Assembly: GCA_003990765.1 (NCBI GenBank)
Contig: RBNJ01000008.1
Coordinates: forward strand, 47,312-67,311
DNA length: 20,000 nt
Source: Jimgerdemannia flammicorona
Taxonomy: Eukaryota
Reading direction: 5' to 3'
In this document: in pieces, positions 1 through 20,000 of the stretch
Numbering within the stretch: position 1 is the stretch's first letter
Layout of the letters: each line of letters opens with the position of its first letter
Translations under genes and position numbers: made by a program
Notes under the pieces: generated by a model
What the model was told of the DNA's origin: nothing
Databases searched by the model: none
Seen by the model: the letters and a program-made list of their open reading frames with translations, nothing else

Positions 1-1699
1 ATCAATCAGGACCAAATATATATATACTAAGTACTTAGATACATCAAAATAGAAAACTACAACAAACCAAATAAATAATTATAACTCTTGAACATATATA
101 CAAACATGACCACTGAGATTTACAACTATATCTGGGCTGATATTTAGAATGTCATTGTCAACTGAGTCACCCCTCCTCTACTCCTTATGAATATCCATAG
201 CCTAGTACCTCTTTACTTTGTAGAAGCCTGATAGAATACCCTGAATATACTTAGTAAAGCCTACTGAATTGGACAAATCTCAAGCTACTACCAGATTAGC
301 TATCTCCTAAAAGATATAGTTGAATACTACTATAATATAGACATTATTCAAATATCTCAATACCAGAAACTCATTACCTGCAAACACTGAGAACTCTTCT
401 ATGAGTATAGTACCTTTATTTTCTATCTCTAAGTTACTACTACTGAAATGATTGCCACTCTGTCCTATAGCCAAATTGATAATATAGTATAAGAACTCAA
501 CTATAAGTATATTGAGTATATTCAAACTATAAACAGAACCTTCCTATATCCTGATGACCACATTCTATAAATACTCCAAGTTGGATATACCATGAAGGAT
601 ATCTACAATATAATTTAGTTCAATAATGATAAAGCAGAAGATAATGATCTCTCTAATACTAATATGATCTTTAGCTAAGGATCTCTACCAGCCCTAATCA
701 CTCTACCAATCTTGCTGATGAACTTACAATAGTTTATAATCACCTATAAGACCTATTGGGATAATGATCACTAGTATAAGTATCAATCTATATTCATATT
801 TAATTACTTCAACTATAATGAAGAGACCAAAGAATATAATTTATACCTCTAGACAACTTTTGAGATTGAACTAACAACTTCACTACCCAAGTATGAGTGA
901 TATAAATAACAGCCACTAGCTTATTACAATCCAGCAACACATAGTACCATAACCTATAGAAGATATACAGATAGCAAATTTGATAAAAGCAAAGATAATA
1001 TATTCTTTCTTTGCCCACTAACTCTATATTCAGTATATGAGACAGATAATGCTATCTTATAAGATAATAATGAGGTCTCAATGTATTATTATCTGAGTGA
1101 ATAGAGAGAAGTGATCTGAGAACCACTCTTTCTAGATGACTACTTCATCAGAGATGATGTCATTAATAGTAATGTCATTGAAAATTACTCAGATAGTATC
1201 TAAATCTATAGATAGCTTAGCAGTTATTAGTATAGTTAGATTAGTCTTGTACAATATAACTGTATACTAACTCAGTAGTCAGACAATCTCTTGATATGTC
1301 AGTTCACACTTATACTATATGACTGCATTCTGACTTAGCAAGACACTAAGTATTATATTCATATCTAGTATAGTTCAGATAGTCTTCTATTAGTATAAAT
1401 ACCCTCTCTCTCAGACCTCAGAATCTCAGACTTGAACAATCTAAATACAACTTTTGAAAACTTTCCCACAATATCTCTTCACACAACTACTCCTAGTATA
1501 GTAATATCATGAATAGTAAATAAACCTATTTAATAACCCACAAATTACTCTTAAGTAAATCTGTACTCTATTTGGTCTCACTCTTAACTATATCATAAAA
1601 TTTCCTAATTAGATATTGTCTGCAGCAATATACCAATTCAACTAAGCTGGTCTTAGTTTCTTAAACTTCTTGAAATATGAAAAATCCTGAATATCCAGA

Positions 1700-2620
1700 A
1701 CTAGTCTGAATAAGGACTTTAATTGAGATATTAACCTGATCTTGAAATCAATAAGTATAAAGGATGTACTCTATGAAATTGATCTTGACCTAAAGAAAAT
1801 AGTCTCCCAGAATACCCAGAACTTTCAGAAAACTCTTTCAGAACTATGTAATAGTACTTTTATAAGTAACTCTCTTATATGAATTGTCTTTAAGGCAGAA
1901 TTAGTTCAGCAGTTAGGATTTACTTAACTATAGTCTTGATTTTTACCAGATATCATTATTGGTAATTATAACTAACTAGATATCCTTGTTCTTGGATCTT
2001 TCTTGTGAACCATTCTGATAGTATATCAAATAAATAGTCTGCTCTTATACTATTTTATGCTTCATCATTAGCAATATATCTTAGGCCAATAGTATTCAGG
2101 AGTAACTTAAGTTTTATATAGAAGGTTTCAAATTTCTCCTTACTATATATATCAAATTTGAGATTGCAGAGTTTTACTTGGGATTTGGTAATTAGAGTTT
2201 TACTATGATATTGAGTAATTATAAGTTATTTGAGCTCAGGGGTTGTAGAGTGGTCTCTATATTCTGGAGTATTATTTGCTATATTTTGAGCAATAACTAC
2301 AGATTGAGTATCCTATGTGAGGAGTTTTTCAGGAAGAGTTTACTACTATTCTTCAGCAAGTCCTTGGAAGAATGTAACAACTTGATGAATATAGACTATA
2401 GTAGTAGCAAAAAGTTATTTGATAGTGTGGTCTTAGTTGTTTGTTAAGAGGTAGTCAGTAACTTACTTATTGCTCTATTGATTGGCTTTAAAATTGATAT
2501 CAACTATACTAATAAAGCTTTGGACTTTCTGTACAATACCATTGAAGGTAAATAGGTTCAGACTTTTTATAAGTTGGGTCTGTTTGGCTAAGATAGTAAT
2601 AGTTACTACCATTATGACTA
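1700..2620 (-). pseudogene. Degenerate Ty3/gypsy-like gag relic
   Basis: Manual minus-strand translation gives KSLNLFTFNGIVQKVQSFISIVDINF (~2570-2490), VVTFFQGLAEE**.TLPEKLLT* (TAG TAG read as decayed TGG TGG; gag-like G.A..WW....TW) and LCNLKFDIYSKEKFETFYIKLKLLL (~2172-2100). Many stops; no pol recognised. Confidence 0.45.
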
Positions 2621-3449
2621 TCTGGGCTATAAGGTCTAGAATCTATTAGTTTGCCATATTGTTTACTAAAAATAGTTATACTATTAGTAATAGTATTACT
2701 GATATGACTTGAGATACTGATACAGAGTGTAATGGTATTCTTTGAGTCTATATAAGTTGCTAAAGTAACTATTGTTGGTCTGGTATAAGAGCTTGATAAA
2801 TAACTATCTATTGCTCTATAGGTGTATTTTGTCCTGAGGGAGATATGTCTTCTTTGGTAGTATATATATCTAGGATTGAATTCAGTGAGATACTCCTCCT
2901 TCTCTTTGCTTAGGTTCTCTTGTAGTTGAGTTTATTCAATATTAAAGTAGATAGTATCAGTTATATATTGGATTTCAGATAAGCTTAATTCAAAATCTAG
3001 TTCTGGTTCAGTGTTAGCTTTGGTTTTAGATAGAGTTATTATAGGGCCTGCTTCTAGTTTAGAGTTAGGTTATTGATGAAGAGTTTCTCTTACTTCTTTT
3101 TTAAGAATATAATGGGTCTTACAATTCTGAAAATAGTAATATAAGGCAATCTTGGTCCTGGTATGGTGATAGTCAGTAAAGTTGAGCTACTTAGCTACAG
3201 AGACTTGTGCTTTATAAGAAACTTAGGCTAGAAAGATAGCTGCTAGTTGTCCTAGATCACTCAGATTTATAGAGCTAACAAAATTCTTATTGAGAAAAGT
3301 AAAGAAGACTTCAATAAGACCTTCTTTGTCTTGACTTGCATAGTGTAGAGTAAGGAGTTCAGTATATAGAGTTTTATCTATCTGCTGATTTAATTAGAGT
3401 ACTTCTTTTTATAGATGAAGCCTGTCTCACTTATTGTAGATATAGAGGT

Positions 3450-5039
3450 CAAATTGTCCCAAAATAGTATTTCTTTACTCAACTAACTACTGTTTCTACC
3501 ATTCTTGATGCAGTAGAGATTCATATATAGAGAAGTAGATTTCCAGATAACAGACCATCTCTCTTACTAGAACAACTGCTCCAATCACATCTCTCTCTAC
3601 TATTCCTTCTCCTAACATCAGAGTCTTATATATACTTATATCAGTTCAACTTGATACCAGAGTATCCCTCATACTATTCTATGGTCCCCTTCAGTATAGC
3701 CATATCTTCTATAGAGCTCAGTCTAACCACCATATTATCAACAAAGACCCCTACCTTCCAATTGACTCTAAGAATATTTAACTCCCCCACTTTATATCTA
3801 AATCTGTTCAATAGAGACTCCAGAGAGAGGGTATAAAGAATCAGTAACAGCAGATTCTCTTGTAGCACTCCTTTGCCCAGGGGAAATAAACTCTTCTTAT
3901 ACCTATTAATCAATATTGTTGTCTGACTCTCCTCTAATAGCCTGATCAATGATTGTCTAAACTCTGAGAGAATACCTATATACTTCAGTACTCTCACCAG
4001 CTACACTTGCTGGACCCTATCATATGTATGCCTTCTCTTAGTTCAGAAAAACTAGCTAACCATCTACCCCTATAACTCATACTCTTTCAATAACTCTATA
4101 CATCTATGTCATCTCATCTCATATCAAGTATCTCTCAATAAAGTTCCTCTGTTCAGCCCCCAGTACCTACAGAGCTACCTTTTATAATCTAGCTATTAAT
4201 ATCTTTATAACTAACTTATAATTTATATCCAAAAGTATAATCAGCCTCTAGTTCTTCTACTCCTCCTATCTCCTCTTATTCTTATACAACAGAGCTACCA
4301 GTTCTAGATACTGTCCCCCAATCCACTCCTCTGATCCAATAATCTCATCATATATCTACATCATCTCCTCTAGAGCCAGCTCCATATCTGCCATCTTCTT
4401 TTAGAAATTCTAAGATAGGTCATCCTTCCCAAGAGTTATCCTGAGACTTGTTGTTGTCAAAACCCTATATACATATCTCTCCACTTTGGACAGATACTTT
4501 CAGATCTCTAAGACTCTCTGTTGGGTCTGGATACTAATTCTCCAGATGCTATTCAATGTCTAGAACATCTTCTCTACTCTCTTTCTTGCTCTATAAATAC
4601 CCTCACCTTGAACTCAACTAGTCTAAGATCTCTGAATTTCTAACCACTATCTCTTCTATCTCATTCAATACTCTCTTCCACTATTGTCTCACTCTCTTTG
4701 CCTAAAGAAGTCATGATATAAACTTCATAGATTACTTCTCTCTTTGATACTCTATCATCTCAACCAGACAGCCATACCCTTTACCTGTAGATCTTTCTTC
4801 TATTTCAGTATCTCCTTTAGCTTCTCTACCTTAAGTTAGATCTACTGAATCCTCTAATCTCTCTTCTCTCTATTATTCAGCAAATCTACCTAGATCAATA
4901 ACAACTTCTCCAAACTCTGAGAGGCCCACCATAATTGAATCCTTTTCTCATTATCTCTCATCTTCTCTTCCTTCCTTCAGAACCTTTGAGCATCTGATTT
5001 CAAATACCACTACTAGTCTCTGATCTCTAGTCTCCTTGC
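3450..5039 (-). mobile_element. L1/Tx1-like LINE ORF2 fragment (linker plus RT domain), heavily decayed
   Basis: ORF 3674..3997 reads GKGVLQENLLLLILYTLSLESLL...KVGVFVDNMVV, matching GRSVLQGDLLSPILYVLLLELL...KVGTFVDNMVV at ~14230-14075. The DNA aligns collinearly by eye with ~13830-15350 (e.g. 4235-4290 with 14575-14635; 4385-4430 with 14725-14775; 4880-4930 with 15220-15270). Confidence 0.85.
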
Positions 5040-5049
5040 TAGTACTCTG

Positions 5050-5310
5050 AATGAGTCAGTTTGAACTAGTTTAAATTGTAACTATTCCTGATTCAAACTG
5101 ATTTAAATTAATCATATAATCAATTTAAACTAATCTGAATTAGTTCAAATTCATTATATAATTAATTTGAATCAGTTTGAATTGTGACTTCTCTGATCCA
5201 AACCTCCAAACTAGTGATTCATATTACTGAATTCAAATTACTGAATTTGAATTACTGAATTTGAATTATTGAATTCAAATTACTAGATTTGAATTATCTG
5301 ATTTGAATCC
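5050..5310. repeat. Subterminal repeats of the hAT element, including ~6 copies of a 14-bp unit CTGAATTYRAATTA (~5227-5310)
   Basis: ctgaattcaaatta, ctgaatttgaatta x2, ttgaattcaaatta, ctagatttgaatta, tctgatttgaatcc. Alternating TTCAA/TTTGA implies ancestral TTCGA. Confidence 0.8.
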
Positions 5311-5413
5311 TATGAACAAATAAAACTTATTACATGATTTACTTATATGTATAAATAGAGGAACATGAGAGAAAAATATTTATAGACATATTCATAAATA
5401 CAAATATAAATAA

Positions 5414-5448
5414 ATATATATATATATACATGTATATATATATATATA
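5414..5448. repeat. (TA)n microsatellite interrupted by CATG
   Basis: atatatatatatatacatgtatatatatatatata, directly upstream of the transposase ATG. Confidence 0.9.
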
Positions 5449-5452
5449 TGCT

Positions 5453-6127
5453 ATGTCAATATCAATATCAATAGATCAGTTATAAGTATTTTCCAATACT
5501 GGTAATACTTCAAGTCAGACTTCTTCTTTAAATAATATTTCATACTATACTCCTCATTCCAAAGTTTAGCAATATTATATCAAAACTAGGAAAAATGAAG
5601 TTACTTACAAGTATTATAGGTAATTTTTTTTTTTTTTTTTTTAAAAAATAATAAAACTTATAATTGCATTGAATATATTTATAGTTTATTTGATATAAAT
5701 ATAAAAAATTTAAAATATAGGCAGAAATATAAAATATATAGTGGTTTTATAACAAATATGATAAAGTATATAAAGGCTCAACATTTAGATAAAATGGAGT
5801 TAAACATAGTATTAAGTAAAATTGATATTCTAGCTATAGTAAGTGGGTGATCTCTTTTTTATCTAAATATAAATTTGAAAATATATCTTTTATACTTAAA
5901 AAAAACCCCCCTAAATTTAGCTATATTCTGCCTTAGAGTTTCAAAATTGACTTATTCATTGGATTATATATAATGATCAACTATTTACTATAATTGAGAG
6001 TACTTTCTTATAAAGTCTCTTTGGTCTTCTCAAGTCTGATTTATACACTCCAAGTACTGATACTATTTATAATGATATTATGGAGACTTATAAAAAAGAA
6101 TATAATAATCTCCATCAAAAGCTTTAG
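5453..6127 (+). pseudogene. hAT transposase N-terminus with BED zinc finger; exons 5453-5619, 5721-5838, 5921-6127
   Basis: Removing GT-AG introns 5620-5720 and 5839-5920 keeps one frame: SKV*QYYIKTRKNEVT-Y-KY-Y-RQKYKIYSGFITNMIK-Y-IKAQ-H (BED pattern S.VW.Y...CxxC...HxxxxH with W>*, C>Y, H>Y transitions). It continues F.N*LIHWIIYNDQLFTIIE...LLKSDLYTPSTDTI, a typical hAT segment. A third donor GTAAA lies at 6128. Confidence 0.8.
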
Positions 6128-6134
6128 GTAAAAT

Positions 6135-6483
6135 AGAGGAAGAAGAAGACCCAGTGGGAGCCAAGAGAGCAAACCCAGAGCCAGTGTCAAAGTGAATAGA
6201 AGATATGTGGAAAGGTGTGTATAAGAGGGATGAACAAAGAACATAACTGAAAATGTATCAGCCATTTATTGCTACATAAAAATGAGGTCCTTATATACAA
6301 AATATGATATTCCAAAAGAGAGGACATGCCACAACTTGAGGCAAACTGAATTAGGAACCACATGACTACCAGAGATAGGTGGAGATAAAGGGGGAGCCAA
6401 TCCCAGTTGCAGGATAAAAATCACAAATAAACACAAACAAAACAAATCCAAATCGAGATTAAAAAACATCTGCAGACCCTGGA
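6135..6483 (-). repeat. 3' direct terminal repeat (pseudo-LTR) of the PLE
   Basis: agaggaagaagaag...catctgcagaccctgga matches 9791-10138. Manual count is about 36 substitutions (all transitions) plus 1 indel over ~348 bp. Confidence 0.95.
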
Positions 6484-6742
6484 GAGGTGAGTGTGAGTGA
6501 GGGGTGAGACCGAAATGGAGTGAGCCACAGTGAGCCCAAGCAAAGCAAGAGGCTGAAGACAGCAGAGGAGAGTGGAGTAAGACCGAGACCCTGGAGTAAG
6601 TGCAAGACTCCAGAGGGAGCAAGGATGTTTTTTAATCCTCTCCAGCAGAGCTAGAGGCACTAGAAGGTGACAAAAATGCAAAATGAGAGTGATAGATTAA
6701 AGAAGAAATAGAAGAAAGATGTGAACAAGCAATCAGAGGGCA

Positions 6743-8650
6743 TCAAGAAAGAGATGAAAGTCTATGGTGTGAAAGAGAAGAGCACAGGACAGAATCAGGG
6801 TATTGAGCAATCCAATAAGCATGATCAAATGGTATGATAAGAATCAGGGATGGAAAAGAAGAGGGGATATAGAGAGGGTAAGGGGGGAGGGAGAGAAGGG
6901 AGGGGGGATAAAGAGGAGAGAGTAGGGAAGAGCAAACAACAGACCATTCAACAGAAGCAAGCAGATTGCAAATGATAGAAATAGGGTAGGCATGATGATA
7001 GACCATGAAGTTGCTAAGAACCCGAACAGCAGACACCCAGTCAGAACAATGGGAGCAGCATAGTGTAAGACAACAAGCCTCATCATGAATGCATTCAAGA
7101 AGAGTACGATGAGGATAATTGGACAAGAAGTCAGAGAACTGTTGGGAATGGGGAAAACAGGAATAAACAATAGTTTGGAAAGGAGAAAGAGAAATGAAAA
7201 GGTCCAAAAAGGGGATACTAGTCATACCACATACCCAGATAATAGAATGGTGGGGAGGGTAGATACCCAGGAATACACTAGAGATATCAACACTAGTAAT
7301 AGTGAAGATGATAAAGTCATCAATATATCGGCAAAAGAAGATATCCCTAGCCCAGAATGCAATGGAAAGAGGTGAAGAAGTATTACATATCACATGCAAT
7401 TCATGGGCCAGACCAATGAGGTTGGCAAGAGTGGGGGCACAATTTGTTCCCATGGTAATACCAGAAGTCTGGTGAAAGGAGCTAAGGACTGACTCAAAAT
7501 AATTGGAGCCACAGACAAGGAGTATAAGCTCAACAATGGAAGCTAGCAAAACTGGAGAGTCCAAAGGAAAAACAATGGAACCCAAAAAGCAAAGGCAAGC
7601 ATTGATCTCATCAAAATGAATAGTAATATAAAAGGAGGAGAAATCACCAGAGACCAAATGGGAAAAATGGTGAATAAGCACAATGGTGGAGCAGAGAAGG
7701 GTGAGCTCCTGAGTATTATGAAGAATAGTATACTCAGACCCAAGATGGTGTTGTAGGAGAGCCATCCAGGAGAGGAAGAAGCAGGATAACCACTTTGAAA
7801 TCTCAGTGGTAAGGGAACTATAAGCAGCCATAATGGGATGCCAAGCCAAAGTAGGCTTGTGAACTTTAGGAAGAACATAGAAAACTGGAAGAGAAATATC
7901 TGGAGAGGACAAAGAGTCCTGGAAGAAGTTAAAAATGGGGTTCACAAATGGAGAATCCAAAAGTGATCTGGCGCAAGTCAGAGAAACCTGAAGAAGAGTG
8001 AGAATCTCATCCAATCCAAGAGTGCTAGGCTCATAAGCCATGGCTCGAAGGAGGGCAGAAAGGCCATCAAGGTAGAGCAACTTAGGAATAAGTACAAAAC
8101 CCTAATTCTTATCAGTGACTATGAGCAAGTACATGGGCAACTGCTTGACCAATTTAAGTGTGGTATGCATGACACAGTCCAAAACCAAGCAAGAGTGAGT
8201 GTGTCTGGGAATGGACAGCAAGCAAGCCATGTTGAGGAATATACAGTATGAAGAGACATTAGGAGGGGGGACCTAATCACTAGGAACAAAATAGTGAGAG
8301 AGCATCTCACCACAATCTTGAAAGAATATGGTAAGGTCAAGAGTATGACAAAAATGTGCAAGACAGGCCAGATCGGTGAAAGAAAATTGTGAGGGAGTCA
8401 CAGGAAAAATGAAGTGAGGACTCAAGGATAAGGCAAAGACTTGAAGGGGAGAAAGGGGGCAGTCAGTTGAAGAAAAAGGAGGAGACAAAAGAGTTCCAAG
8501 AGAAGAGTAAACCCAAAAGTTTGGGACAAGCAACTGGGAAAGGTGAAGGGAGAATAATATGAGAAACTACTCAAGACACACCAGAAGTGATGACAGAATC
8601 TGAGAAGGGACAGGGACACTGGGGGAGAACTACACCAGGGGGAAGTTTAA
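6743..8650 (-). pseudogene. PLE reverse transcriptase (ORF2); open 6743..8080, same frame extends upstream through a few stops
   Basis: One frame holds LSPLQVFALSLSPHF...F.H.LDL.IFF, IVTDKN*G.VLI, PVFYVLPKVHK...WHPI, GDFSSFYITI, GITMGTNCAPTLANL, FCRYIDDF, IPFLDL, SNYPH...I.DEA...CS and HAYP. These match the PLE RT motif series (ADK.G, LPKIHK..RPI, G.AMG..AP..ANL, RYIDD, FLD). Confidence 0.9.
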
Positions 8651-9747
8651 GAGCAGGAGACCTTCCCCTTCCCTCTGACTTTTTTTGAAGGCAGTGAGCC
8701 CAATGAACAGGAGCACACCCCGTCAGAGTGCCAGACCTTATGGCCACAGGCTTTTATACAGCCCTTACATTCAGGGGCATGGGTGGAGGAGGTGGAGGAG
8801 GAACTGACAGAGGAGGCTGAAGGCAAGCGAGCAGCTGAAGAGGCAGCAGCACAAGAAACACCACTGTGAGGACAGATGGACTTGGCTGGGTACCAGTAGG
8901 CATGGTGGAGGTGACTGAAGCAGACAGCACAAGGCCAGGCCCTGACAGGGTGAGAACCAAGTTGGCGGTCATACTTGGGGGCAGGGGAAATAGAGGAGGA
9001 AGCCTTGGTGGGAGAGGGAAACTGAGAAGAGACCAATGAAGCCTGGTTCGGCTTGGTGGGGGTCTTAGTGGGGGTCTTGGAGGGGGCCTTGGCAGTGGTG
9101 GTGGCGAAGGAATAGACCTCAGTATGAGCAGCAGTACAAGCTTCGGCATGAATGGCCTCAGAGACTGAAACCTTGGGGGAGGCAGGCAGGGGAGCAGTGG
9201 TGGTGGTGCAGGCAGCAGCAGCAGTATGTGATGTCTCTTGCTTGTGAAGGTGAGCAACAAAAGAAGTGCTGGCAAGGAGAAAATGATGCACAGCATCGAT
9301 GTCAGCAGTGACAGAAGGAATATCTTGGATGGTGAAGCCACAAAAGAGGGCAGCATCCAAAAGGCAAGAGGAGGTAAAGGCCATGAAGGTGGCACAGGCA
9401 TGGTGGAAAGAGGCAGAAGTGGTGGCAGCAGAAGTGGTGGCAGCATCAGCAGTAGCAAGCTTGGTGGTAGCAGTGGCAGTATGAACCTCTTTGGAGAGAG
9501 CTTGGTGGTAGGCCTCAGGGAGAACAGAGTAGCAGATGGCAGGCAGAGCAATGACATCAATGTCATGGCAGAGATGAGCCTCCTTGACAGAGAGGACAAG
9601 AACCAACTGAAACTGAGAGAGGAGTGGACAACCAGAGGGACGAAGGTTCAGGGGGAGGGAAAGGATGGCAGTCAAGATATAGGTCTCAAACAAGACAGTG
9701 GTGGGGGTGAAGGTAGGGGGGGGAGGAGGAGGAAGAGTCTCATCCAT
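8647..9747 (-). CDS. PLE ORF1: Ala/Thr/Pro-rich gag-like protein with a degenerate CCHC zinc knuckle and basic C-terminus (366 aa from ATG 9747)
   Basis: Uninterrupted frame starting MDETLPPPPPP, 44 nt downstream of the pLTR. CAVCFSHLHHAYWYP fits Cx2Cx4Hx4C with the last C>Y (TGC>TAC). A second cluster reads CKGC...HSDGVC and the protein ends KKVRGKGK. The His/Cys excess is probably decayed Arg (CGN) codons. Confidence 0.7.
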   Translation of the reverse strand: MDETLPPPPPPTFTPTTVLFETYILTAILSLPLNLRPSGCPLLSQFQLVLVLSVKEAHLCHDIDVIALPAICYSVLPEAYHQALSKEVHTATATTKLATADAATTSAATTSASFHHACATFMAFTSSCLLDAALFCGFTIQDIPSVTADIDAVHHFLLASTSFVAHLHKQETSHTAAAACTTTTAPLPASPKVSVSEAIHAEACTAAHTEVYSFATTTAKAPSKTPTKTPTKPNQASLVSSQFPSPTKASSSISPAPKYDRQLGSHPVRAWPCAVCFSHLHHAYWYPAKSICPHSGVSCAAASSAARLPSASSVSSSSTSSTHAPECKGCIKACGHKVWHSDGVCSCSLGSLPSKKVRGKGKVSCS

Positions 9748-9790
9748 GAGCTCATATGAGAACAGAGGCCCTGAGGGCAGGCAGTATAGC

Positions 9791-10138
9791 AGAGGAAGAA
9801 GAAGGCCCAGCAGGAGCCAAGAGAGTGAACCCAGAGCCAGTGTCAAAGTGAATGGAAGATATGTGGAAAGGCATATATAAGGGAAATGAATAAAGAACAT
9901 AACTGAAAATGTATCAGCTGTTTATTGCTATATAAAAACAAGGTCCTTATATATAAAATATGACATCCCAAAAGGGAGGACATGCCATAACTCAGGGCGA
10001 ACTGAATTAGGAATCAATGACTGCTGAAGATAGGTGGAGATAAAGGGGGAGCCAATCCCAGTTACAGGATAAAAATCACAAACAAACACAAATAAAACAA
10101 ATCCAAATTGAGATTAAAAAACATCTGCAGACCCTGGA
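9791..10138 (-). repeat. 5' direct terminal repeat (pseudo-LTR) of the PLE
   Basis: Direct copy of 6135-6483; lacks the TG...CA termini of true LTRs. Confidence 0.95.
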
Positions 10139-10653
10139 TCAGACCAGGTCCCTGGCATTTTCCACACCCATTGTCGTCCATCAGACCCAAATCAATTGAT
10201 CTTCATCTCATCCAAGAATATTACACATTTCCAATTGTCGATCATCCAGTCTTTATACTTACATGCAAAATCATATTGAGCTTTGGTATGCTGGCATAGT
10301 AGTCTGGGCTTTTTTTGCTTGACGGCGACTTTCAAACTGGCCTCTTTCAGGGCCCGATGTATGGTTTGAGTGCTTACAATTGGTTTGCTATCTTCTTGGA
10401 GTAATTTTGAGGCCTTTGGCAGTGTATCCATCTTGCCACCAGTCACTTGATGAATGAGCCATGATTTATCATGAGCTGAGAGTTTGCTCAGATAGCCTCC
10501 TTTCAAGATGACATTGTCATCATAATAATCCCTTCTAATATAGATGATCAATGTTTGGCTAATGCCCATCTCATTTGTGATTTTTCATGTCATTATGCCA
10601 GAATTCAGCATATTGATGATGGTGTTGTATATATCCAAGGAGAGTTTCTTCAT
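10139..10653 (-). pseudogene. Tc1-family transposase, truncated shortly after the first catalytic Asp
   Basis: MKKLSLDIYNTIINMLNSGIMT*KITNEMGISQT (HTH) ... VSTQTIHRALKEASL...KKPRL...FACKYKDW..DNWKCVIFLDEMKIN*FGSDGRQWVWK. Both TGA stops fit CGA>TGA. Confidence 0.92.
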
Positions 10654-10991: not shown

Positions 10992-12635
10992 TATCCAGCA
11001 TTTTGGTATCTGCCCCTATACTGGCAGTCTCATCCCACCCCTCCTCTGGGACATCCACTAGCTCATCCTTGCCAACTGCCACCACCTGTCCACCTTTTGT
11101 AACATCAGAAACCCCAAAGTATACCTGCTGAGCACTCTTCATCAATACATCCTCTGCCACCTGACCTCTTGCAGCTGGACCCCACCAGACCAGAGAGAGA
11201 GTGTCATTCAAGGCTGGTTCCTAGACTTCAAATGTACCATCAGCAAATGGGTCCACATATAGTGTCTTCCCAGCCCCCTCCAGGTCCTCTACTACATCAC
11301 CTCCTCCCTTACTAACCCAGACACTTGCCTCTATGCCCTCAGACTTCTCAGAGCTTCTAGTCTTCATCTTCTCCCCTCTTTCTATGCTTACTAGCATCTC
11401 CCTCTGTCTCCTACATCCTTGAGCCCTCTTCTACTACTTCTTATCAGTGTGAATATATTTCTCATCTATAATCTCTAGATATATCAACTCCTCATACAAC
11501 TTTCTGGCTTTTGCCCTCTACTCGACAGCACCACTCAACTCCTCCAAAGCCTCTAACAAGTTCTTCTCCTCCTCTTCACCCCCTTTCACCCTTGATACCT
11601 TATAGATAAAGGCCCCCCATATTAATACTGAAGACCAGTTACTTGTCTTCCCCATGGCCTCTCTCTCAGCCAGTCTAATTCTGACATCTACATCACTCAT
11701 CCTGAAGGTAGTCCTCTCCTACATCTGGAAACTGATATCTACCACATTACTATACTCTACCATCACCTCCTCCACCCTCCTTCTAGTCTCATCCTTCATC
11801 ACTGTAGACACTCCCTTTATCAGTAACTACACCACCCTGGGGTCCCACCTCAAGCACTGCACCATAGAGACCACTTCTCCCCTACTACCACTCCAGACCT
11901 CAAAGTTTCCTCCAATGAGCCCACCTCCTCAAAGCCCACCTCAACTCCCTCCAGACTCTTCAGGAACTTCACCAAGGTGGCCCCAGCCATCTGCTTCAAG
12001 ATAAGCCTCAGGACCATCCTCACTATTACTGCTAAGCCCTGGAAGTACAAAGTAGTTACAAATTCCAAAATTGACTTCTTGAGCAACAGTGTCACTGCTA
12101 ACTCTGTCACACTATTTACCAGATCTTCCTTCTATATTGGGAACCCCTGCCCTATCTGGCCATCAGCCATTACATTTTTTTTTTTTTTCCTAATTCTCTA
12201 TTATACTTCCATCAACAGTCACTCCCCCAGCCACAGCACTCCCAGCATCTATACTTGCATCTCCTGCCTGAGTACCACTCCCCCTCCTGATACTAGTCTT
12301 ACCCTTCCCCTTAGCAGCACCAGCCCTAGTCCTAGCCAACCATCCACTTGCTTTCACCTTATCTGCAAAGCTGGAGGGGCCAGGCCTTCCCTTAGTTCCA
12401 CCTGATACTAGTCCTCCTTCAGAGCCATCTCCACCCTTCAAACCTCCAAAAACCCCCATTCCCAATCCATAACCTCTATCCACATGCTGCCAGCTGAATG
12501 CCCTGGGTCTACCTGACCCAGCATGCCCATTGGAACTCTTACTTAATGATATTTTTATAGTACCTTTTCTCTGAGTTGTGTCAAAAACCATTGCTTGAAG
12601 TTGGTGTAATGTGAATTGTACAGGAGAAAGGTGTG
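10992..12635 (-). mobile_element. 5' part (5'UTR plus most of ORF1) of a second LINE copy, interrupted by Tc1
   Basis: Collinear diverged homolog of ~16635-18244: AFSWQHVDRG vs AFDWQHVKRG; DVRIRLAEREAMGKT..W...IWGAFIYKVSRVK vs DVRIQLAEKEATGKT..W...VWGAFLYKVTRVK; VYFGVSDVTKGGQVVAVGKDELVDV vs VYFGVSEIAKEGQVVVVGKNELIDV. Confidence 0.85.
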
Positions 12636-12637
12636 AT

Positions 12638-15600
12638 CTACATATTCTCTCTACCAAACAATACTACTAACTACTCTACAGTCCCCAACCATGCCACCAG
12701 CCTATCAGAGTATCTTTCATCAATCCTTTCTATTGCAACAGTTGCACCTCCAAGCTCTGATATTGCCTATTCTCAAATACAAATAACTAGTAATCTACCA
12801 ACCCCACCCATATAGCCAGTGTCTATTCTAAAGTAAGCTACTCCTTCTCAATCCCTCTCACCAATCTATCCCACAAATCCTCCCACCAACCCCTCACACC
12901 ATTCCTCCTCCACATAATACCTAACCTCTTTCCAACCACTATCCAGAAGTCACTAAGCACCTCACACTCCCCTAGCCAATATTCAGGCATCTATACAAAG
13001 CCCCCTTCCTGTCTAACATTGTAACACTCCTCACAGTCAAAGTTTCCCTCTTCCATCAGGTGGCCAGAGTGAAAGTTGAATATGATATTTCTCCTCAATA
13101 TGTACCACCAGACCACTCAATACTTCAGTGGTAGCCACCACTGAATCTCAGCACTCTAGGCCTAGATTTTATTCTAGTCTCACTCTTCTTTAATATCCAT
13201 CAACTGCCATCTGCTGGGCCATAGATCCTGCCCCAACCTCCTTTGGCACTCAACTCCATCACCAATATCAAAGTCATCAAGGAAGATGCCCTCTAGCAAC
13301 ACTCAGTCCTATCTCTATATTTCTGGGCCCCAAGGCCTTTCTCTCTCATCTCTTTGCCAATAAATACCAATATGATATACCCCATTGGTGACTCTCCACC
13401 AGAAGTCCTTAAACTGCATATGCTCATTGTTCTGAAGCCCAACTAAGGACAGAAGATCTCCTGTAAAGCCTCTCAGTAAGAATCTCATCTTCCAGACCTT
13501 CTTCAACAGAGGAACCCAGCTATCTCTCTCCAGCTCAATAGCTCTCTTTAGCCACCATGCTCTCAGATAGTACAACCTCTTTGAAAAGTCAACCAGCCCA
13601 AGTCCCTCTCTAGTTACTAGTAAGAACAAGATTTCCCAGCCAATCTGACTCCTCTTCTCAGCCCAGATCCACCCCTTGGCCAGTTTTAGCAGTTTCTTCA
13701 CCACCCAGGCTGAGAAGTCCAGATGATAAGCCAAATACCACAACTTTGGTAGCCAGTAAGCATTCAAGATGGAACACACCCTGCCAGAGATAAGTAGCAG
13801 CCTCCCCAGCTTTGCAGGGCCTCTCTCTCAGATAATAATCCACTGCTTTCACCAGAGTTTTGGAAGAACTGACCCATATACTGAGAGATAGATGCCCAAG
13901 TATCTCACTGCCTCTCTAGTAGAAACAATTGTTCTGATGATATCCTCCCCCACCAGACTATTATTCAGCACTATTATTTTATACTTGTGCTAATTTAGTT
14001 TAGCTCCAGAGTATACCTCATATTACTCTATAGTCTCTTTTAGTTCCTTAATATTGGCAATCAAGCCCAGACCAACCACCATATTATCTACAAAGGTGCC
14101 AACTTTCTACTCAATGCCAAATACTAAAAGTTCTCCTATCTTTTGCCAAATTCTATCTATTAAAAGCTCTAATAAGAGCACATACAGAATGGGAGACAGC
14201 AGGTCCCCCTGGAGAACACTCCTACCCAAAGAGAAAGCCACCCCTCAATGTCCATTACATATGAGCACAGCCCTGCTCTCTTCCAGTAAGCTGACCATTA
14301 CCACTCAGAACTATTGAGGGACACCAATCCTATCTAGCACCTTTATCAACCAGACTCTCTAAACATAGTTGTATGCCTTCTTCTGATCTAAGAAGACCAG
14401 GTACCTATCCAGTCTACAGGCTTGTGTCCCTTCAATAACACTATGTATCCAAGCTATTCCATCCTGAATGAGCTTGCCCCCAACAAATCCTCACTACTCC
14501 ACCCCTAAGGCCTATTGGGCCACCTTCTGCAGCCTCACTACCACTATCTTAGTAGTCAACTTCCTGTCTATTTCCAGTAGTATGATTGGCCTCCAGTTCT
14601 TCCAGTCCTCCCTCCTACTTTTGTTCTTATATAGTAGTGCCACCAGCCCCAGATTCTGCTCATATATTTATCTTCCAGACTGTAGTACTAAGTCAAAAAG
14701 TTCCCTCAGCTCTCCCAGTACACCAGAAACATCTACCATCTTCTTTCAGAAATCCCAGGGCAGGCCATCCTCCTCTGGTATTATACTCAGTATAGTTGCA
14801 ACAAGAATCTAGTAAATCTCCTCCTCCTATACCAGTAACATCAGATTGCCCAGCCCTTCTACCTGTAGTGAGTACCAATCCTCTAAGGTGAGATCAATGG
14901 TAACAGCCTCAGCTCCACCCTTCTCCTCACTCAACAAGTCACTCCACCTCTTCTTCAATAATCTGAGAATATCTTGTATACTATGCACCAATAGCCTCTC
15001 AGAATTAAGAACCCTCTCCCACCTCTGTTGAATCCTTCTTGCTCTAAGGGCCCTCATGAGAAACTTAGAGGGTCTCTCTCCATTCTCCAGCCCCTGCCAA
15101 TATAGATATGTCACCATACTCTGTATCTGTGCTTTCTCCTCCTCTTGTAATATCTGTTACAACTCCACAACCTCCTTTTTCATCCATAATAATCTCCAAT
15201 TCTCCACCCTCTCCAGGGTCAACAAATCTGCCCAATCTTCCAACAGCCTCATCAATCTAACAGAGGCCCACAACATCTTCTTCCTCCTCTGTCTATCAGT
15301 CACCTTACTGGCCTCTCTCCAATAGACTCTAGCAGCCTCTTTTAGTCTCATCTACTTAACTCTAACTGGAGTACCTTTCTATATCCACCCCTCTACCCTC
15401 TGCTGAATATCCACAGCCCACTTGTCCCACAGTATCTTATTGTTTAACAGAGAGGAGTTGAGACACCAATGTCCCATACCATCCCCACTCCCCCCAAAAT
15501 GGCCCTGTCCCAGCAATCTCCAATAATCAGACCACAGACACTATTCAGTCTCTAGTAATCTCCAAACATTTAGGCCCTAGCAGTCTGCTGTTAAAATCCA

Positions 15601-16203
15601 GTCAATTCTTGTCTCCAGGCCACTCACCCAATGTGTATATACTCTTCTGTCACCCTAAAACCCTCTGCCAGTATCTACCAAAGCACTCAGCCTCTCTACT
15701 TTCTCCTATATCTCCAAACCTCCACTCTTATCCTCTGCCCCCTGCCCTTCATCAGTTCTATCCAACAGTGTACCTCTGACCATATTAAAGTCCCCACCAA
15801 GTATGTCTACTCTAGCCTCAGTCAGAACCCCTCCCTTCTGGAGACTCTTCACCCACTCTATATGCTCATCCCATACTACAGGACAGTAGTAGAATCTCAC
15901 TATAACTGGTTTCTAATCAGTGTGAATCCACTCTCCCCAAACTAGCCTGTCTTCCCAGTTCTACATATCTTGTACCTCCTCTCTACCCTTCCTGATCAGA
16001 ATTCCAACCTTGTCCTCTCAAACTACCTCCCCTCTCCATTTCTTCATCTATTCTAGTTTATCCAAATTATCCTTGCATCTGACATCCTGCAAAAGAAAGA
16101 AATTGGCCTCTAATTCCTTCAGCCAAGCAAAAATCTTCTATCAATAAAACAAACCCCATAACCCATTCACATTTAAAGAAAAAATGTTGGTTGTACTATT
16201 TAT
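12638..16203 (-). pseudogene. LINE ORF2: AP endonuclease, reverse transcriptase and C-terminal Cys motif; multiple stops and frameshifts
   Basis: APE: IFSLNVNGL, FFLLQDV, ILGGDFN, TRIDWIL, WSDY, GHWCLNSSLL. Linker: GERPSKFL. RT: DGLPWDF, NWRPIILL, FLDQKKAYNYV, SVLQGDLLSPILY, FVDNM, GAKLN, RYLGI, GLGLVDF. C-terminus: CEEC...PEYWLGEC. Start inferred as ATG>ATA at 16203; 3' end approximate. Confidence 0.93.
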
Positions 16204-16234
16204 AAGGAATAATGTATAATAGCAAGTGTATCCT

Positions 16235-18161
16235 CTACTGCTCCATGTTCATCTCCTCCTGAGCTGAGTCCAGATCATATTTCATAGCTATCTTCTTCTC
16301 TTCAGTCCTCTTAGCCTCCAGTTTAACCAGAAGTTCTGTGAGCTCCCTATCCTCTTCTTTAAATTCTCATGATATTCCAGACAGACCTCTTGTCAGAGCT
16401 GCAACTCCCTTTTCTTATCAACCTCATACCCTTTCTTCTCCAGGAAAACTGCAAGAATTTCCACCTTCAGTACCTCTACCACTCTCTTGCTATATAAGAT
16501 ATATATCCAATACTTATCACTCATCACTTGCAGATCCACCTCCCCCAACTCCTCTGCTGCAAAGTTATTCGTTATCTTACACATCTATAGCAGATTTCCC
16601 ACCTCCTTCCCCCCAGGAGTCACTGGCCTCCCTCTATCCAGTATTGAAATATCAGTTCCTGTACTTGCAATCTCATCTCACTCCTCTCTTAAACATCTAT
16701 CAGTTCATTCTTACCCACCACCACTACCTGCCCCTCTTTTGCTATCTCAGAAACTCCAAAGTATACTTACTGGGCTCTCTGCATAGGCACATCCTCCACC
16801 ACTCTACCCCTTGAAGCTGGATCTCATCTGATAAGAAGTGTAGGGGTTGGGGAGTCTTTTCAGACCTCAAAAGTACCATCTGTATAAGGATCATACCCAG
16901 TCACCTTATTGGCCACTTCTGGCCCCTTCTCAGTATTCTTGCTATCTTCACACTCTCCTTGGCTCTCTTCATGATTTCAATATCACCAGCATCCTTCTTC
17001 ACCCTACTCTCTAAATTTGCCAATAGCTCTCTCTGCCTCTTATATTCTTGAGACCTTTTCCATAGCCTCTTATCTATCTGAATTCTCTTCCCATCCACTA
17101 CTTCTAAATATGTCAACTTGATATATACCTTCTAAGCCTTTGTTCTCTGCTCTATAGTACTACTTAGCTCCTCTAATACCTTCAACAAATCCTCTTCCTC
17201 TTTCTCACTCTCCTTCACCCTTGTCACTTTATACAAGAAAGCCCCCCAAACTATTACTAAAGGCCAGTCTCTAGTCTTCCCAGTAGCTTCCTTCTCTGCT
17301 AACTGAATTCTGACATCAATATCTTCAGTCCCAGAATGAGGTCCTCTCTCAGACCCAGAACCTAACATCAACCACCTCTCTATACTTAGCTATTACTTCC
17401 TCAACTCTCCTCTTTGTCTCCTCAGCAGTCGCCATGAGTACTCCTTTTACTAGTAATTATACCACCCTGGGGTCCCACCTCAAGCAGTGTGCCATCAGAA
17501 CATATATCTCTCCAATTATCAGCCCAGCCTTCAGTGCTTCCTTCAATGGCTCCATCTCTTCAAAGCTAATCTCCACTCCTTTCAGTCCCTTCAGGAACTT
17601 CATAGACATAGCTCTAGCCACCTGCTTAGCAATCAGCACCAGCATCATTTTCACCATCTGAAATACAAAGTAACTATAAATTCTGAGATTGACTTCTTGA
17701 GTAATGGGGCCATCACTAGGTCCATTATACTATCTACCAGATCCTCCATCTATCTAAGCCCCATCCTCTCAGCTCTACTCTCAGTAGTCATATCTGGATT
17801 TTTTTTCTAGATTGGCAGTTCTATTACTATCAGCTATCATACTTGTCCCAGCCACTATATTCTCAGCTCTACAGTCCCTACTACCAAGAGCTGCACCCTC
17901 ATGCCTGGTTATCTTCACCATCTTCTTGCCCTTCCTTAGCCAGCCCTTTAGTCCAGATATCAGCTGCTCTCTTTTTACCATATCTGCAAAACTTGTTCTC
18001 TCTGTCTCCTGCTCTCTGACCCTGCTTCCTCTCCATCTATATTCTCTTGCCAGCAGACCCCTCATGCTCTCCCCCAAGCCAGAGCCCCTCTTTACATGCT
18101 GCCAGTCAAATGCACTAGGGCTGCCCTGCCCAGTATATATCTCAGAACATATATTAGTCAC
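16235..18161 (-). pseudogene. LINE ORF1 region, fragmented; no domain recognised
   Basis: A chain of ORF pieces (17781..18161, 17457..17657, 17132..17371, 16901..17116, 16393..16584) ends at TAG 16235-16237, ~30 nt before ORF2. It is conserved at protein level with 10992-12600. Confidence 0.75.
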
Positions 18162-18252
18162 TATGTTGCTAGACTCTTCTCTCTAAAAACTATATTGTGA
18201 GTATTGTCAAAAGGTTGTATAACCTGAATATTACTGGGGAAAGGATTTTTGA

Positions 18253-18870
18253 CTTCATTCTCTTGCTCTTAATTTCTCATAGATTTGTCTTCTATATGCC
18301 TCACCTCACCACTTGAAAAGGCTGTCTATGCTCCTTACTTGAGATATATTATATATATTCTCTATGTTTTTTTTTTTTTTTTTGAGGGGCTTTTACTCTC
18401 TATACTTCATTCTCTTGCTCTCCATATCTCATAGATTTGTCTTCTATATGTCTTACCTTACCACTTGAAAAGGCTGTCTATACTTCTTACTCAAGATATA
18501 TTGTATATATTCTCTATATATATATATTTTTTTTTTGAGTGAGGGGCCTTTACTCTCTATGCTTCATTCCCTTGCTCTCCATTTCTTGTAGATTCATCTT
18601 CTATATACCTTGCCTCACTGCTTGAAAAGGCTTTCCACACTTCTTACTTGAGGTGTGTTATATACATTCTCTATACTTTTTTTTTTTTGAGTGAGTGAGA
18701 GGCCTTTACTCTCTATACTTCATTCTCTCACTCTTCATTTCTTATAGATTTGTCTTCTACATGCCTTGCCTTGCTGCTTGAGAAGGCTATCTATGTTCCT
18801 TACTTGAGGTATATTGTATATATTCTCTGCACTTTTTTTTTTTTTTTTTTTAGAGGAGCTTTTGCTCACT
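18253..18870. repeat. Tandem repeat, 4 copies of a ~155-bp unit
   Basis: Units start at 18253, 18405, 18562 and 18718 (cttcattcYctYRctc...tagattYRtcttcta...cttgaRaaggct...poly-T...gaggggc). Confidence 0.95.
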
Positions 18871-18879
18871 TCACTTTAT

Positions 18880-19325
18880 TTCTTCACTTGCTCTGCTTCA
18901 TTTTCTCACTTGCTCTACTTTCATTCCCTCACTCACTCTACTTTCATTTTCTCACTTACTCTACTTTCATTCTCTCACTCACTCTACTTTCATTCTCTCA
19001 CTTACTCTGCTTTCATTCCCTCACTCACTCTGCTTTCATTCCCTCACTTACTCTGCTTTTATTCCCTCACTCACTCTGCTTTCATTTCACTCACTCACTC
19101 CACTTTTATTTCCCTCACTTGCTCTGCTTTTATTCTCTCACTTACTCTGCTTTCATTCCCTCACTTGCTCTGCTTTCATTCTCTTACTCATTCTGCTTTC
19201 ATTCCCTCACTCACTCTGCTTTCATTCCCTCACTCACTCCACTTTCATTCTCTTACTCACTCCACTTCACTTCTCTCACTCACTCTGCTTCACTTCTCTC
19301 ACTCACTCTACTTCACTTTTCTCTC
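18880..19325. repeat. Minisatellite, ~23-bp unit CTTTCATTCCCTCACTCACTCTG
   Basis: Directly visible, roughly 19-20 imperfect copies. Confidence 0.95.
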
Positions 19326-19344
19326 TTTCCATTTTTTGCAGCTT

Positions 19345-19600
19345 ATCTTCCACATGTCTCACTGCTTGAAAAGGCCATCTATGCTCTATGCTGATCACCC
19401 CAACATGCCTCACTGCTTGAAAAGGCCATCTATGCTCTATTCTGACCACTCTGACATACCTCACCACTTGAAAAGGCCATCTATACTCCATTCTGACCAC
19501 CCTGATATATGTATCTTGCTGCTTGAAAAGACCATTTATACTCTATTCTGACTACTCTGATATATCTCACCACTTGAAAAGGCCATCTGCACTCTCTGCC
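19345..19600. repeat. Tandem repeat, 5 copies of a ~52-bp unit
   Basis: The CTTGAAAAGRCCAT core recurs at ~19365, 19416, 19467, 19522 and 19573. Confidence 0.93.
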
Positions 19601-19702
19601 TAAGGTGTTTTGTATGCATTCTCTGACTCACCTCACCTTACCTCACCTTGTCTCACTACTTTTGGTATACTACTTTTGATATATTGTATTTATTCCCCAT
19701 AA

Positions 19703-19743
19703 CAATATTTGCTAAGCTAATGTTTGCTAAGCCAATGTTTACC
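19703..19743. repeat. Short 15-bp tandem repeat (~2.7 copies)
   Basis: caatatttgctaagc taatgtttgctaagc caatgtttacc. Confidence 0.75.
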
Positions 19744-19830
19744 ATAATGATGTACCAGTAACATAAAGACTGATTGGGGGGTGTCTTCTAATCTATGCTA
19801 AAAACATACTCTCTTATTTCTGAGGAAGAT

Positions 19831-19833
<3 letters not shown>

Positions 19834-19863
<30 letters not shown>
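19834..19863. repeat. T30 homopolymer (polypyrimidine tract before ATAG, or poly(A) tail of a minus-strand retroelement)
   Basis: 30 T followed by ATAG; the two readings cannot be separated inside this window. Confidence 0.6.
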
Positions 19864-19866
<3 letters not shown>

Positions 19867-20000
19867 GTCACTTGGACTTCCTTCCTTTATTATGCTGATG
19901 TCTATAATTCTAACAATCAATGTCACCCCCAACCTCAACCAATGCCCTGTGGACCCAACCCTCCCCCTCAACCTCCCCCTGCCTGAGCACCACCCAATTA

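Follow-up and report, generated by a model that had tools for sequence, protein, structure and literature searches.

The minus strand of a 20,000-nt stretch of DNA from Jimgerdemannia flammicorona (contig RBNJ01000008.1, positions 47,312 to 67,311; this whole stretch is the window) carries, between positions 6128 and 10138, a pair of direct repeats enclosing two reading frames, in the order upstream direct repeat, ORF1, reverse transcriptase (RT) frame and downstream direct repeat. The upstream repeat lies at 9784..10138 (-) and the downstream repeat, which forms the 3' end of the full unit, at 6128..6483 (-). Each is about 355 nt long, and their spacing of 3,656 nt is the length of the unit. 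ORF1 encodes 366 aa (8647..9747, minus strand), from an ATG at 9747 to a TAA at 8649-8647. The RT frame spans 684 codons (6632..8686, minus strand) in the -1 frame relative to ORF1 and ends in a TAA at 6634-6632. We consider 6128-10138 likely to be a single dead copy of a Penelope-like retroelement (PLE) with two ORFs and no endonuclease. The preliminary description of this DNA had proposed an endonuclease-less PLE with direct terminal repeats and an ORF1 bearing a gag-like zinc knuckle; the class, the upstream ORF1 with its basic tail and the repeats at 6128-6483 and 9784-10138 stand, whilst the gag-like knuckle probably does not.

The RT frame is interrupted by TAG codons at 8632, 8569, 8275 and 8104 and by a TGA at 6745. 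The stop-to-stop RT ORF (6743-8101, minus strand, 452 aa) holds LPKVHKP, QTSGITMGTNCAP, YIDD and IPFLDL. Reading along the frame places DKN at 8113-8105, LPKVHKP at 7873-7853, GDFSSFY at 7648-7628, QTSGITMGTNCAP at 7471-7433, YIDD at 7327-7316 and IPFLDL at 7216-7199. P0001, a fragment of 406 aa and the closest protein that the searches returned, matches the RT with 43-44% identity along its whole length, and the thumb aligns with it. The alignments show little or no variation at LPKVHKP, MGTNCAP and YIDD. When two TAG stops are read through in one frame, the N-terminal part of the RT can be aligned with the N-termini of two further relatives (P0025 and P0128), and TDKN(stop)GFVLIPK is matched by TDKNLGFALVPK of P0025 and TDKNLGFAVFDR of P0128. 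An N-terminal DKN/DKG region, the core motifs and a thumb, the marks of a PLE RT, are all present, and the Pfam RVT_1 match is weak (E 4.7e-4, below cut-off). Core and thumb are thus where they had been reported, but the RT is not complete, as its frame holds four TAG and one TGA. The alignment with P0001 extends 27 residues past the TGA of the window (..SLS(stop)CPLIACSHLSSISSLIYHSHFAF versus ..KNSHIPLIARAGNRNIASLIQNSKFGF). Therefore CPLIACSH (6742-6719, minus strand), which stands just past this stop in the thumb/C-terminal tail region and had been likened to the motif preceding GIY-YIG in endonuclease-bearing PLEs, is ordinary RT C-terminal tail; its second Cys aligns with an Arg, CPLIAC facing IPLIAR of P0001. 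The encoded enzyme comprises the PLE N-terminal DKN region, core and thumb, with no nuclease. As a side observation on the stops, that at 8275 aligns with a Trp of P0025 (TGG to TAG) and that at 8104 with a Leu of P0025 and P0128; TAG accounts for four of the five premature RT stops, which is only mildly unexpected given the composition.

A profile built from the window RT, P0001, P0002 and P0004, searched against 1.84 billion representatives, matched 24,595 proteins at E<=1e-3 and also retrieved GIY-YIG-bearing RTs. A metagenome scan for closer relatives returned loci of at most 32% identity, or of 37-50% identity over short pieces. One 29% match came from a genome collection, on the contig of a bacterial metagenome-assembled genome, and no RT relative was found in a viral collection.

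Aligned with each other, the two direct repeats are identical at 312 of 350 columns (89%) and differ by 37 substitutions and 1 indel. All 37 substitutions are transitions (19 C/T, 18 A/G), 9 inter-repeat dinucleotide sites are of the CA/TG or CG/TG type, and CpG observed/expected within the PLE is 0.09; the spectrum taken from conserved columns covers 13 usable columns only. After insertion the copy decayed by C-to-T and G-to-A transitions only, chiefly at CpG; they gave rise to the five RT-frame stops and left Cys, His or Tyr codons in place of most CGY codons for arginine. Each repeat contains TATATAAGG, a TATA-like box (9953-9945 upstream, 6297-6289 downstream), followed 19 nt on (27 nt start to start) by AATAAA (9926-9921 and 6270-6265, respectively). 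A promoter could therefore lie in the upstream repeat and a poly(A) signal in the downstream one, and transcription may have run from the one to the other. This arrangement fits the transcription start reported inside the pseudo-long terminal repeat (pLTR) of PLEs in the excerpt available of PMC8557442. In this copy the 3' end of the unit is placed before its 5' end, as in PLE pLTRs. We suggest that the upstream repeat is the 3' end of a 5'-truncated tandem copy: a truncated copy and a full copy would have been laid down head to tail, so that the last 355 nt of the unit are repeated in front of it.

Pyrimidines make up 67% of the PLE sense strand (T 0.375, C 0.299, A 0.167, G 0.158) and 79-80% of its third codon positions, and the skew extends to the non-coding repeats; in the RT genes of 13 intact relatives, third positions are 45-63% pyrimidine. 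Since transitions cannot alter the purine share and all 37 repeat differences are transitions, the purine depletion predates the insertion. The skew fits an element whose basic residues were mostly CGY-encoded Arg, and it is for this reason that decay gave so many Cys and His. We know of no mechanism for a purine-poor PLE sense strand.

ORF1 is open from stop to stop over 424 codons, beginning within the upstream repeat, where translation might instead start from an in-frame ATG at 9900. It is longer than composition allows, because the longest frame in 2000 dinucleotide shuffles of the ORF1 region was 376 codons, with 1 of the 2000 reaching 366. Codon periodicity is strong, purines making up 50%, 32% and 20% of positions 1, 2 and 3. 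The middle of the protein is rich in Ala, Thr and Ser and predicted to be helical at low confidence, and the tail is basic, Cys/His-rich and contains SKKVRGKGK. The ORF1 product may have combined a helical middle with a basic, originally Arg-rich tail that bound nucleic acid. Two Cys/His modules lie towards the C-terminus: module 1 (residues 273-294; 8866..8931, minus strand) reads CAVC-x9-Y-x5-C-P-H and module 2 (residues 327-347; 8707..8769, minus strand) reads CKGC-x9-H-x4-C-S-C.

An A AAA AAA heptamer (8680..8686, minus strand), 36 nt before the ORF1 stop, is in phase for a -1 frameshift from ORF1 into the RT frame; the element is 16.7% A and has no other A7 run. The same design occurs in five two-ORF metagenome relatives with intact genes (L001, L004, L005, L012 and L014), in which an upstream ORF of 296-452 aa overlaps an RT ORF of 656-803 aa (stop to stop). 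In 5/5 of these, as in the window, the RT frame is -1 relative to the upstream ORF, and all five have an in-phase X XXY YYZ heptamer within the overlap or shortly ahead of it. Their upstream ORFs have helical-looking middles and Lys/Arg-rich tails, without significant similarity to one another, except between L004 and L017, or to the ORF1 of the window. L005 and L006, on a single 11.8-kb metagenome contig, belong to a head-to-tail array in which at least 3 units of an intact two-ORF PLE without endonuclease follow one another with a period of 3,196 nt. The sense strand of this array is T-rich (T 0.34-0.35). For the window element, -1 ribosomal frameshifting at A AAA AAA would most likely have expressed the RT; a frameshift between ORF1 and the RT is on record for PLEs (PMC8557442, in excerpt). 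A -1 frame with an in-phase slippery site across six elements amounts to a testable expression mechanism for the group.

The upstream repeat abuts a relic of a Tc1-type transposase (10117..10584, minus strand; HTH_Tnp_Tc3_2, Pfam E 1.4e-7), which marks the PLE insertion as lying within an older transposon. AT-rich DNA follows the downstream repeat, with no recognisable continuation of the Tc1 transposase there, and the 3' junction reads ...CTTCCTCT/ATTTTACC, without the telomeric repeat found at the 3' end of Coprina and Athena elements. The element would have had to integrate by using a 3'-OH that it had not cut itself, at an internal site inside or beside the Tc1 relic rather than at a telomere. 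The options are entry through a pre-existing break or nick, help in trans, and a former chromosome end.

Several observations weigh against this assignment. The analysis rests on one copy (window 6128-10138). The telomeric sequence (TTAGGG)2 has no match on either strand of the window with 1 mismatch allowed, and no reverse-complement telomeric stretch was found at the 3' end of the unit. Rfam detects no hammerhead ribozyme in the whole window (E<=1) or in either repeat (E<=10), and none reaches the Rfam gathering score in L001-L020, whilst canonical hammerhead motifs are described in all PLEs but Naiads and most Chlamys, typically within the pLTRs (PMC8557442, in excerpt). Decay could hide a hammerhead, as could minimal variants below the reach of Rfam. 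The RNA that follows the heptamer is no more stably folded than its shuffles (z -0.62), and A-rich heptamers arise easily in the Lys-rich tails of the relatives, so that the frameshift is inferred rather than shown; moreover, two TAG stops stand between the heptamer and the conserved RT region. No homologue of ORF1 was detected, and its kinship with the ORF1 of the relatives consequently rests on position, size and composition only. P0001 ends at the end of its contig and is thus silent on what follows the RT tail. Finally, the two Cys/His modules share their spacing and a Trp, 54 residues apart and just ahead of the basic tail, and module 2 falls in a part of the single-sequence AlphaFold model of ORF1 with a pLDDT of 70-79.

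These last points are what would be expected of a real pair of zinc-binding modules (CxxC-x9-H-x4/5-C-x-H), a nucleocapsid-like RNA chaperone that would be new for PLEs, and the model predicts a helix and a hairpin at residues 321-350. We regard such a pair as unlikely. The preliminary description had based its zinc knuckle on the string Cx2Cx4Hx4(C>Y)P beside a basic tail. Both are literally there, the string as C273-x2-C276-x4-H281-x4-Y286-P287 within module 1, but the fourth ligand is Tyr286, and the scan with Pfam zf-CCHC that the description had proposed gave no match to ORF1 (E up to 10). Both modules depart from the full pattern (Y for H in module 1, C for H in module 2), and the ORF1 model as a whole has a mean pLDDT of 42.5. 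Homologues of ORF1 were sought without success: a word-based search gave none at E<=0.01, the best phmmer match among the 151 RT relatives had E 0.65, no blastp match to 7 upstream ORFs of relatives fell below E 0.2, and the ESM Atlas offered no usable match. A CxxC..H..C motif is present in none of the 7 checked upstream ORFs of relatives and in none of the 151 RT proteins.

The RT of the same copy indicates where such Cys and His residues probably come from. At the 26 RT columns in which P0001 has Arg, the window copy reads His at 7, Cys at 6, Tyr at 2, Arg at 2 and other residues at 9. Cys, His or Tyr thus occupy 15/26 of these columns versus 48/373 of the others (Fisher p 3.9e-7). Where P0001 and P0025 both have Arg (9 columns), the window has His at 5, Cys at 2, Arg at 1 and Val at 1. 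The window codons at the P0001-Arg columns are CAT, CAC, TGT, TGC and TAT, the transition products of CGY. By comparison with P0001, few of these residues appear ancestral, as 2/21 aligned Cys and 2/26 aligned His of the window RT match a Cys or His. The ORF1 tail has the composition of a decayed Arg-rich tail: its last 117 aa contain 11.1% K+R and 17.9% C+H+Y (sum 29.1%), and the upstream-ORF tails of the five two-ORF relatives contain 23.9-29.9% K+R and 2.6-6.0% C+H+Y (sums 28.2-32.5%). Judged from these sequences, what looks like a zinc knuckle is most likely the remains of an Arg-rich tail: its CGY codons, probably including those of module 1, would have decayed to TGY, CAY or TAY, and ORF1 would resemble a knuckle protein because they now specify Cys, His and Tyr. 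CpG-decayed repeats, or repeats altered in the manner of repeat-induced point mutation (RIP), can turn Arg codons into Cys, His and Tyr codons and so mimic zinc-finger or knuckle motifs. Zinc-like motifs in decayed repeats need checking against intact relatives or several copies.

A bolder proposal, distinctly unlikely in our estimate, is that the locus represents a deep endonuclease-less PLE lineage of early-diverging fungi that spread internally without telomeric repeats or a hammerhead, and whose active copies had a sense strand of about 1/3 purines (79% third-position pyrimidine) and encoded nearly all basic residues as CGY Arg. The addition of a real Cys/His pair in ORF1 makes for a weaker version of it. 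If true, such internal spread implies that 3' ends are found independently of a nuclease, for example at breaks or replication intermediates. If many such insertions exist, they bear on how nuclease-less, telomerase-related RTs integrate.

Pfam identified no GIY-YIG domain in the RT ORF or ORF1, nor, at E up to 10, in 13 stop-free minus-strand pieces covering the thumb to the end of the downstream repeat and the N-terminal region; P0003 served as the positive control for detection. This bears out the earlier observation of no GIY/YIG motif. The domain was found at neither terminus, and the element shares the absence of an endonuclease with Coprina and Athena. Among the listed profile matches, GIY-YIG occurs in 0/58 of P0005-P0062, in 1/48 of P0063-P0110 (E<=1e-4) and in 4/41 of P0111-P0151. 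We calculated a FastTree phylogeny of 102 rows, consisting of the window RT (X at stops), 12 metagenome-locus RTs, P0001-P0080 and 9 added sequences, with rows below 380 aa dropped. The window RT joins P0001 (support 97) and then P0025 (support 99) in a long-branched group. Seven rows taken as endonuclease-bearing, five by Pfam GIY-YIG and two (P0123 and P0125) by pattern match only, make up one side of a branch with support 100, and the window is among the other 95. As the tree has neither named references nor bootstrap, and the window row is of odd amino-acid make-up, it shows a side and not a named clade. We interpret the RT as a probable deep branch among endonuclease-less relatives. A new lineage at the family level is possible, on a tree that was built without labelled Coprina, Athena or TERT references.

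It is very unlikely that the family is endonuclease-bearing and that this copy lost its GIY-YIG by deletion or decay. Such a loss would agree with an RT tail that continues beyond a stop to within about 150 nt of the downstream repeat, with a closest relative (P0001) that is itself a fragment cut at its contig end, with an internal site of the kind known for endonuclease-bearing PLEs (PMC8557442, in excerpt) and with the endonuclease-bearing RTs among the weaker profile matches. However, the domain was found in none of the 58 relatives that score best behind the query rows, P0025, the second-nearest in the tree, among them; P0002 and P0004 end shortly past the thumb. The endonuclease rows lie across the support-100 branch from the side of the window, the frame pieces flanking the RT hold no trace of the domain, and the alignment of the N-terminal region with endonuclease-less relatives begins at the first residues of the latter.

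The hallmarks of an LTR retrotransposon were likewise sought. We found no TG..CA ends at the repeats, no tRNA-like primer-binding site after the upstream repeat and no polypurine tract, the downstream repeat being preceded by a polypyrimidine stretch. RNase H and integrase gave no Pfam match. No short target duplication was detected at the element flanks. A long one was not found either in flank alignments scored by ACGT, by purine/pyrimidine and with tolerance of transitions: none of the alignments attained the top shuffled score, the transition-tolerant score of 22.3 being about 2 standard deviations above the shuffle mean of 18.1. Lacking LTR hallmarks, target duplications and telomeric repeats, the repeats therefore fit the pLTRs formed by partial tandems that are a feature of the PLE class (PMC8557442, in excerpt). 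True LTRs made by retrovirus-like strand transfer, which would be a new LTR-type mode of replication on a Penelope-type RT, are hardly credible: the TATA-like box followed by AATAAA is reminiscent of the order U3-R, ORF1 can be read without a stop from the repeat into the body and has an in-frame ATG at 9900, and the regular direct repeats of Coprina-1_Alen are called LTR by its authors (PMC13159263, in excerpt), yet every structural mark listed above is missing, the tract before the downstream repeat is of the wrong kind, and the intact relative L005/L006 forms full head-to-tail arrays, a route to pLTRs (PMC8557442, in excerpt).

Beyond the PLE, the plus strand of the window is also skewed at 11000-20000 (C 0.31 vs G 0.12) and 3500-5000 (C 0.27 vs G 0.10), and the Tc1 relic and AT-rich spacers are unskewed. 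Positions 1-3000 and 5000-6000 are AT-rich (22-31% G+C) and without skew, and their CpG observed/expected is 0.0. These CpG-free blocks are consistent with RIP-like C-to-T hypermutation. Within AT-rich DNA downstream of the PLE lies a 44-nt near-perfect inverted repeat (5091-5134 / 5139-5182), adjoined by about 6 copies of a 14-nt satellite, ATTACTGAATTTGA, within 5091-5310. On the G-rich strand, a 170-aa open frame at 13318-13827 (-) has no Pfam family and reaches a score of 0.97 in the ESM Atlas against unnamed eukaryotic protein clusters (Oomycota, Mucoromycota, Cnidaria), a lead that probably points to a further retroelement relic. Tandem arrays with periods of 156, 23, 51 and 106 nt lie at 18252-19595 on the C/T-rich strand and yield long spurious frames rich in Leu, Ser, Phe and His. 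A Pfam search of 40 ORFs from the rest of the window found no family.

Against known systems, the end of ORF1 resembles the zf-CCHC nucleocapsid knuckle (C-X2-C-X4-H-X4-C) in having a C-x2-C-x4-H-x4 string beside a basic tail at the end of the first ORF. It differs in that the last ligand is Tyr, Pfam gives no match and the Cys and His are mostly decayed Arg codons. Penelope/Poseidon, Neptune and Nematis share with the window element an RT with a DKN region and thumb, partial-tandem pLTRs with a promoter in the pLTR, and intrachromosomal integration. Unlike it, they have a single ORF with Zn-finger-like linker motifs and a GIY-YIG at the C-terminus. The search for a nuclease in the window element was negative, and its Cys-bearing string CPLIAC faces IPLIAR in a relative. 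The Athena elements, or Terminons, of bdelloid rotifers are also endonuclease-less and have two ORFs, a possible ORF1-RT frameshift and head-to-tail arrays (PMC8557442 and PMC6431247, both in excerpt). According to these descriptions they are confined to rotifers and attached to telomeres, and carry reverse-complement telomeric repeats beside a hammerhead; neither of these two motifs was found here.

The closest published layout is that of Coprina-1_Alen from Ascochyta lentis (PMC13159263, in excerpt, for this and the following statements on Coprina). Coprina elements usually have one ORF, and in Coprina-1_Alen an ORF1 with a coil and disordered regions precedes an ORF2 with a nuclear localization signal, DKN, RT and thumb. 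Its flanking direct repeats measure 63 and 255 bp, or 422 bp in one copy, and it sits between telomeric repeats. Like it, the window element lacks GIY-YIG, has an ORF1 ahead of a frame with DKN, RT and thumb, and is flanked by direct repeats of a few hundred bases. The two differ in ORF1, where the window has a helical middle and a basic tail in place of coil and disorder, and in location, as the window copy has telomeric repeats at neither end and is internal, next to the Tc1 relic. They differ further in that no hammerhead is detected in the window and the RT forms a deep branch with P0001 and P0025 only. In the literature on PLEs in Mucoromycota, we found only single mentions of "Penelope".

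The preliminary description had suggested that the LTR-element-like layout might be an undescribed one, which does not hold: pLTR partial tandems and two-ORF endonuclease-less PLEs are already published (PMC8557442, PMC6431247 and PMC13159263, all in excerpt), those with two ORFs at 4-6 kb (PMC6431247). The locus is a decayed PLE copy of an already described architecture. Its interest lies in a divergent endonuclease-less PLE branch, apparently from an early-diverging fungus, at a non-telomeric site.

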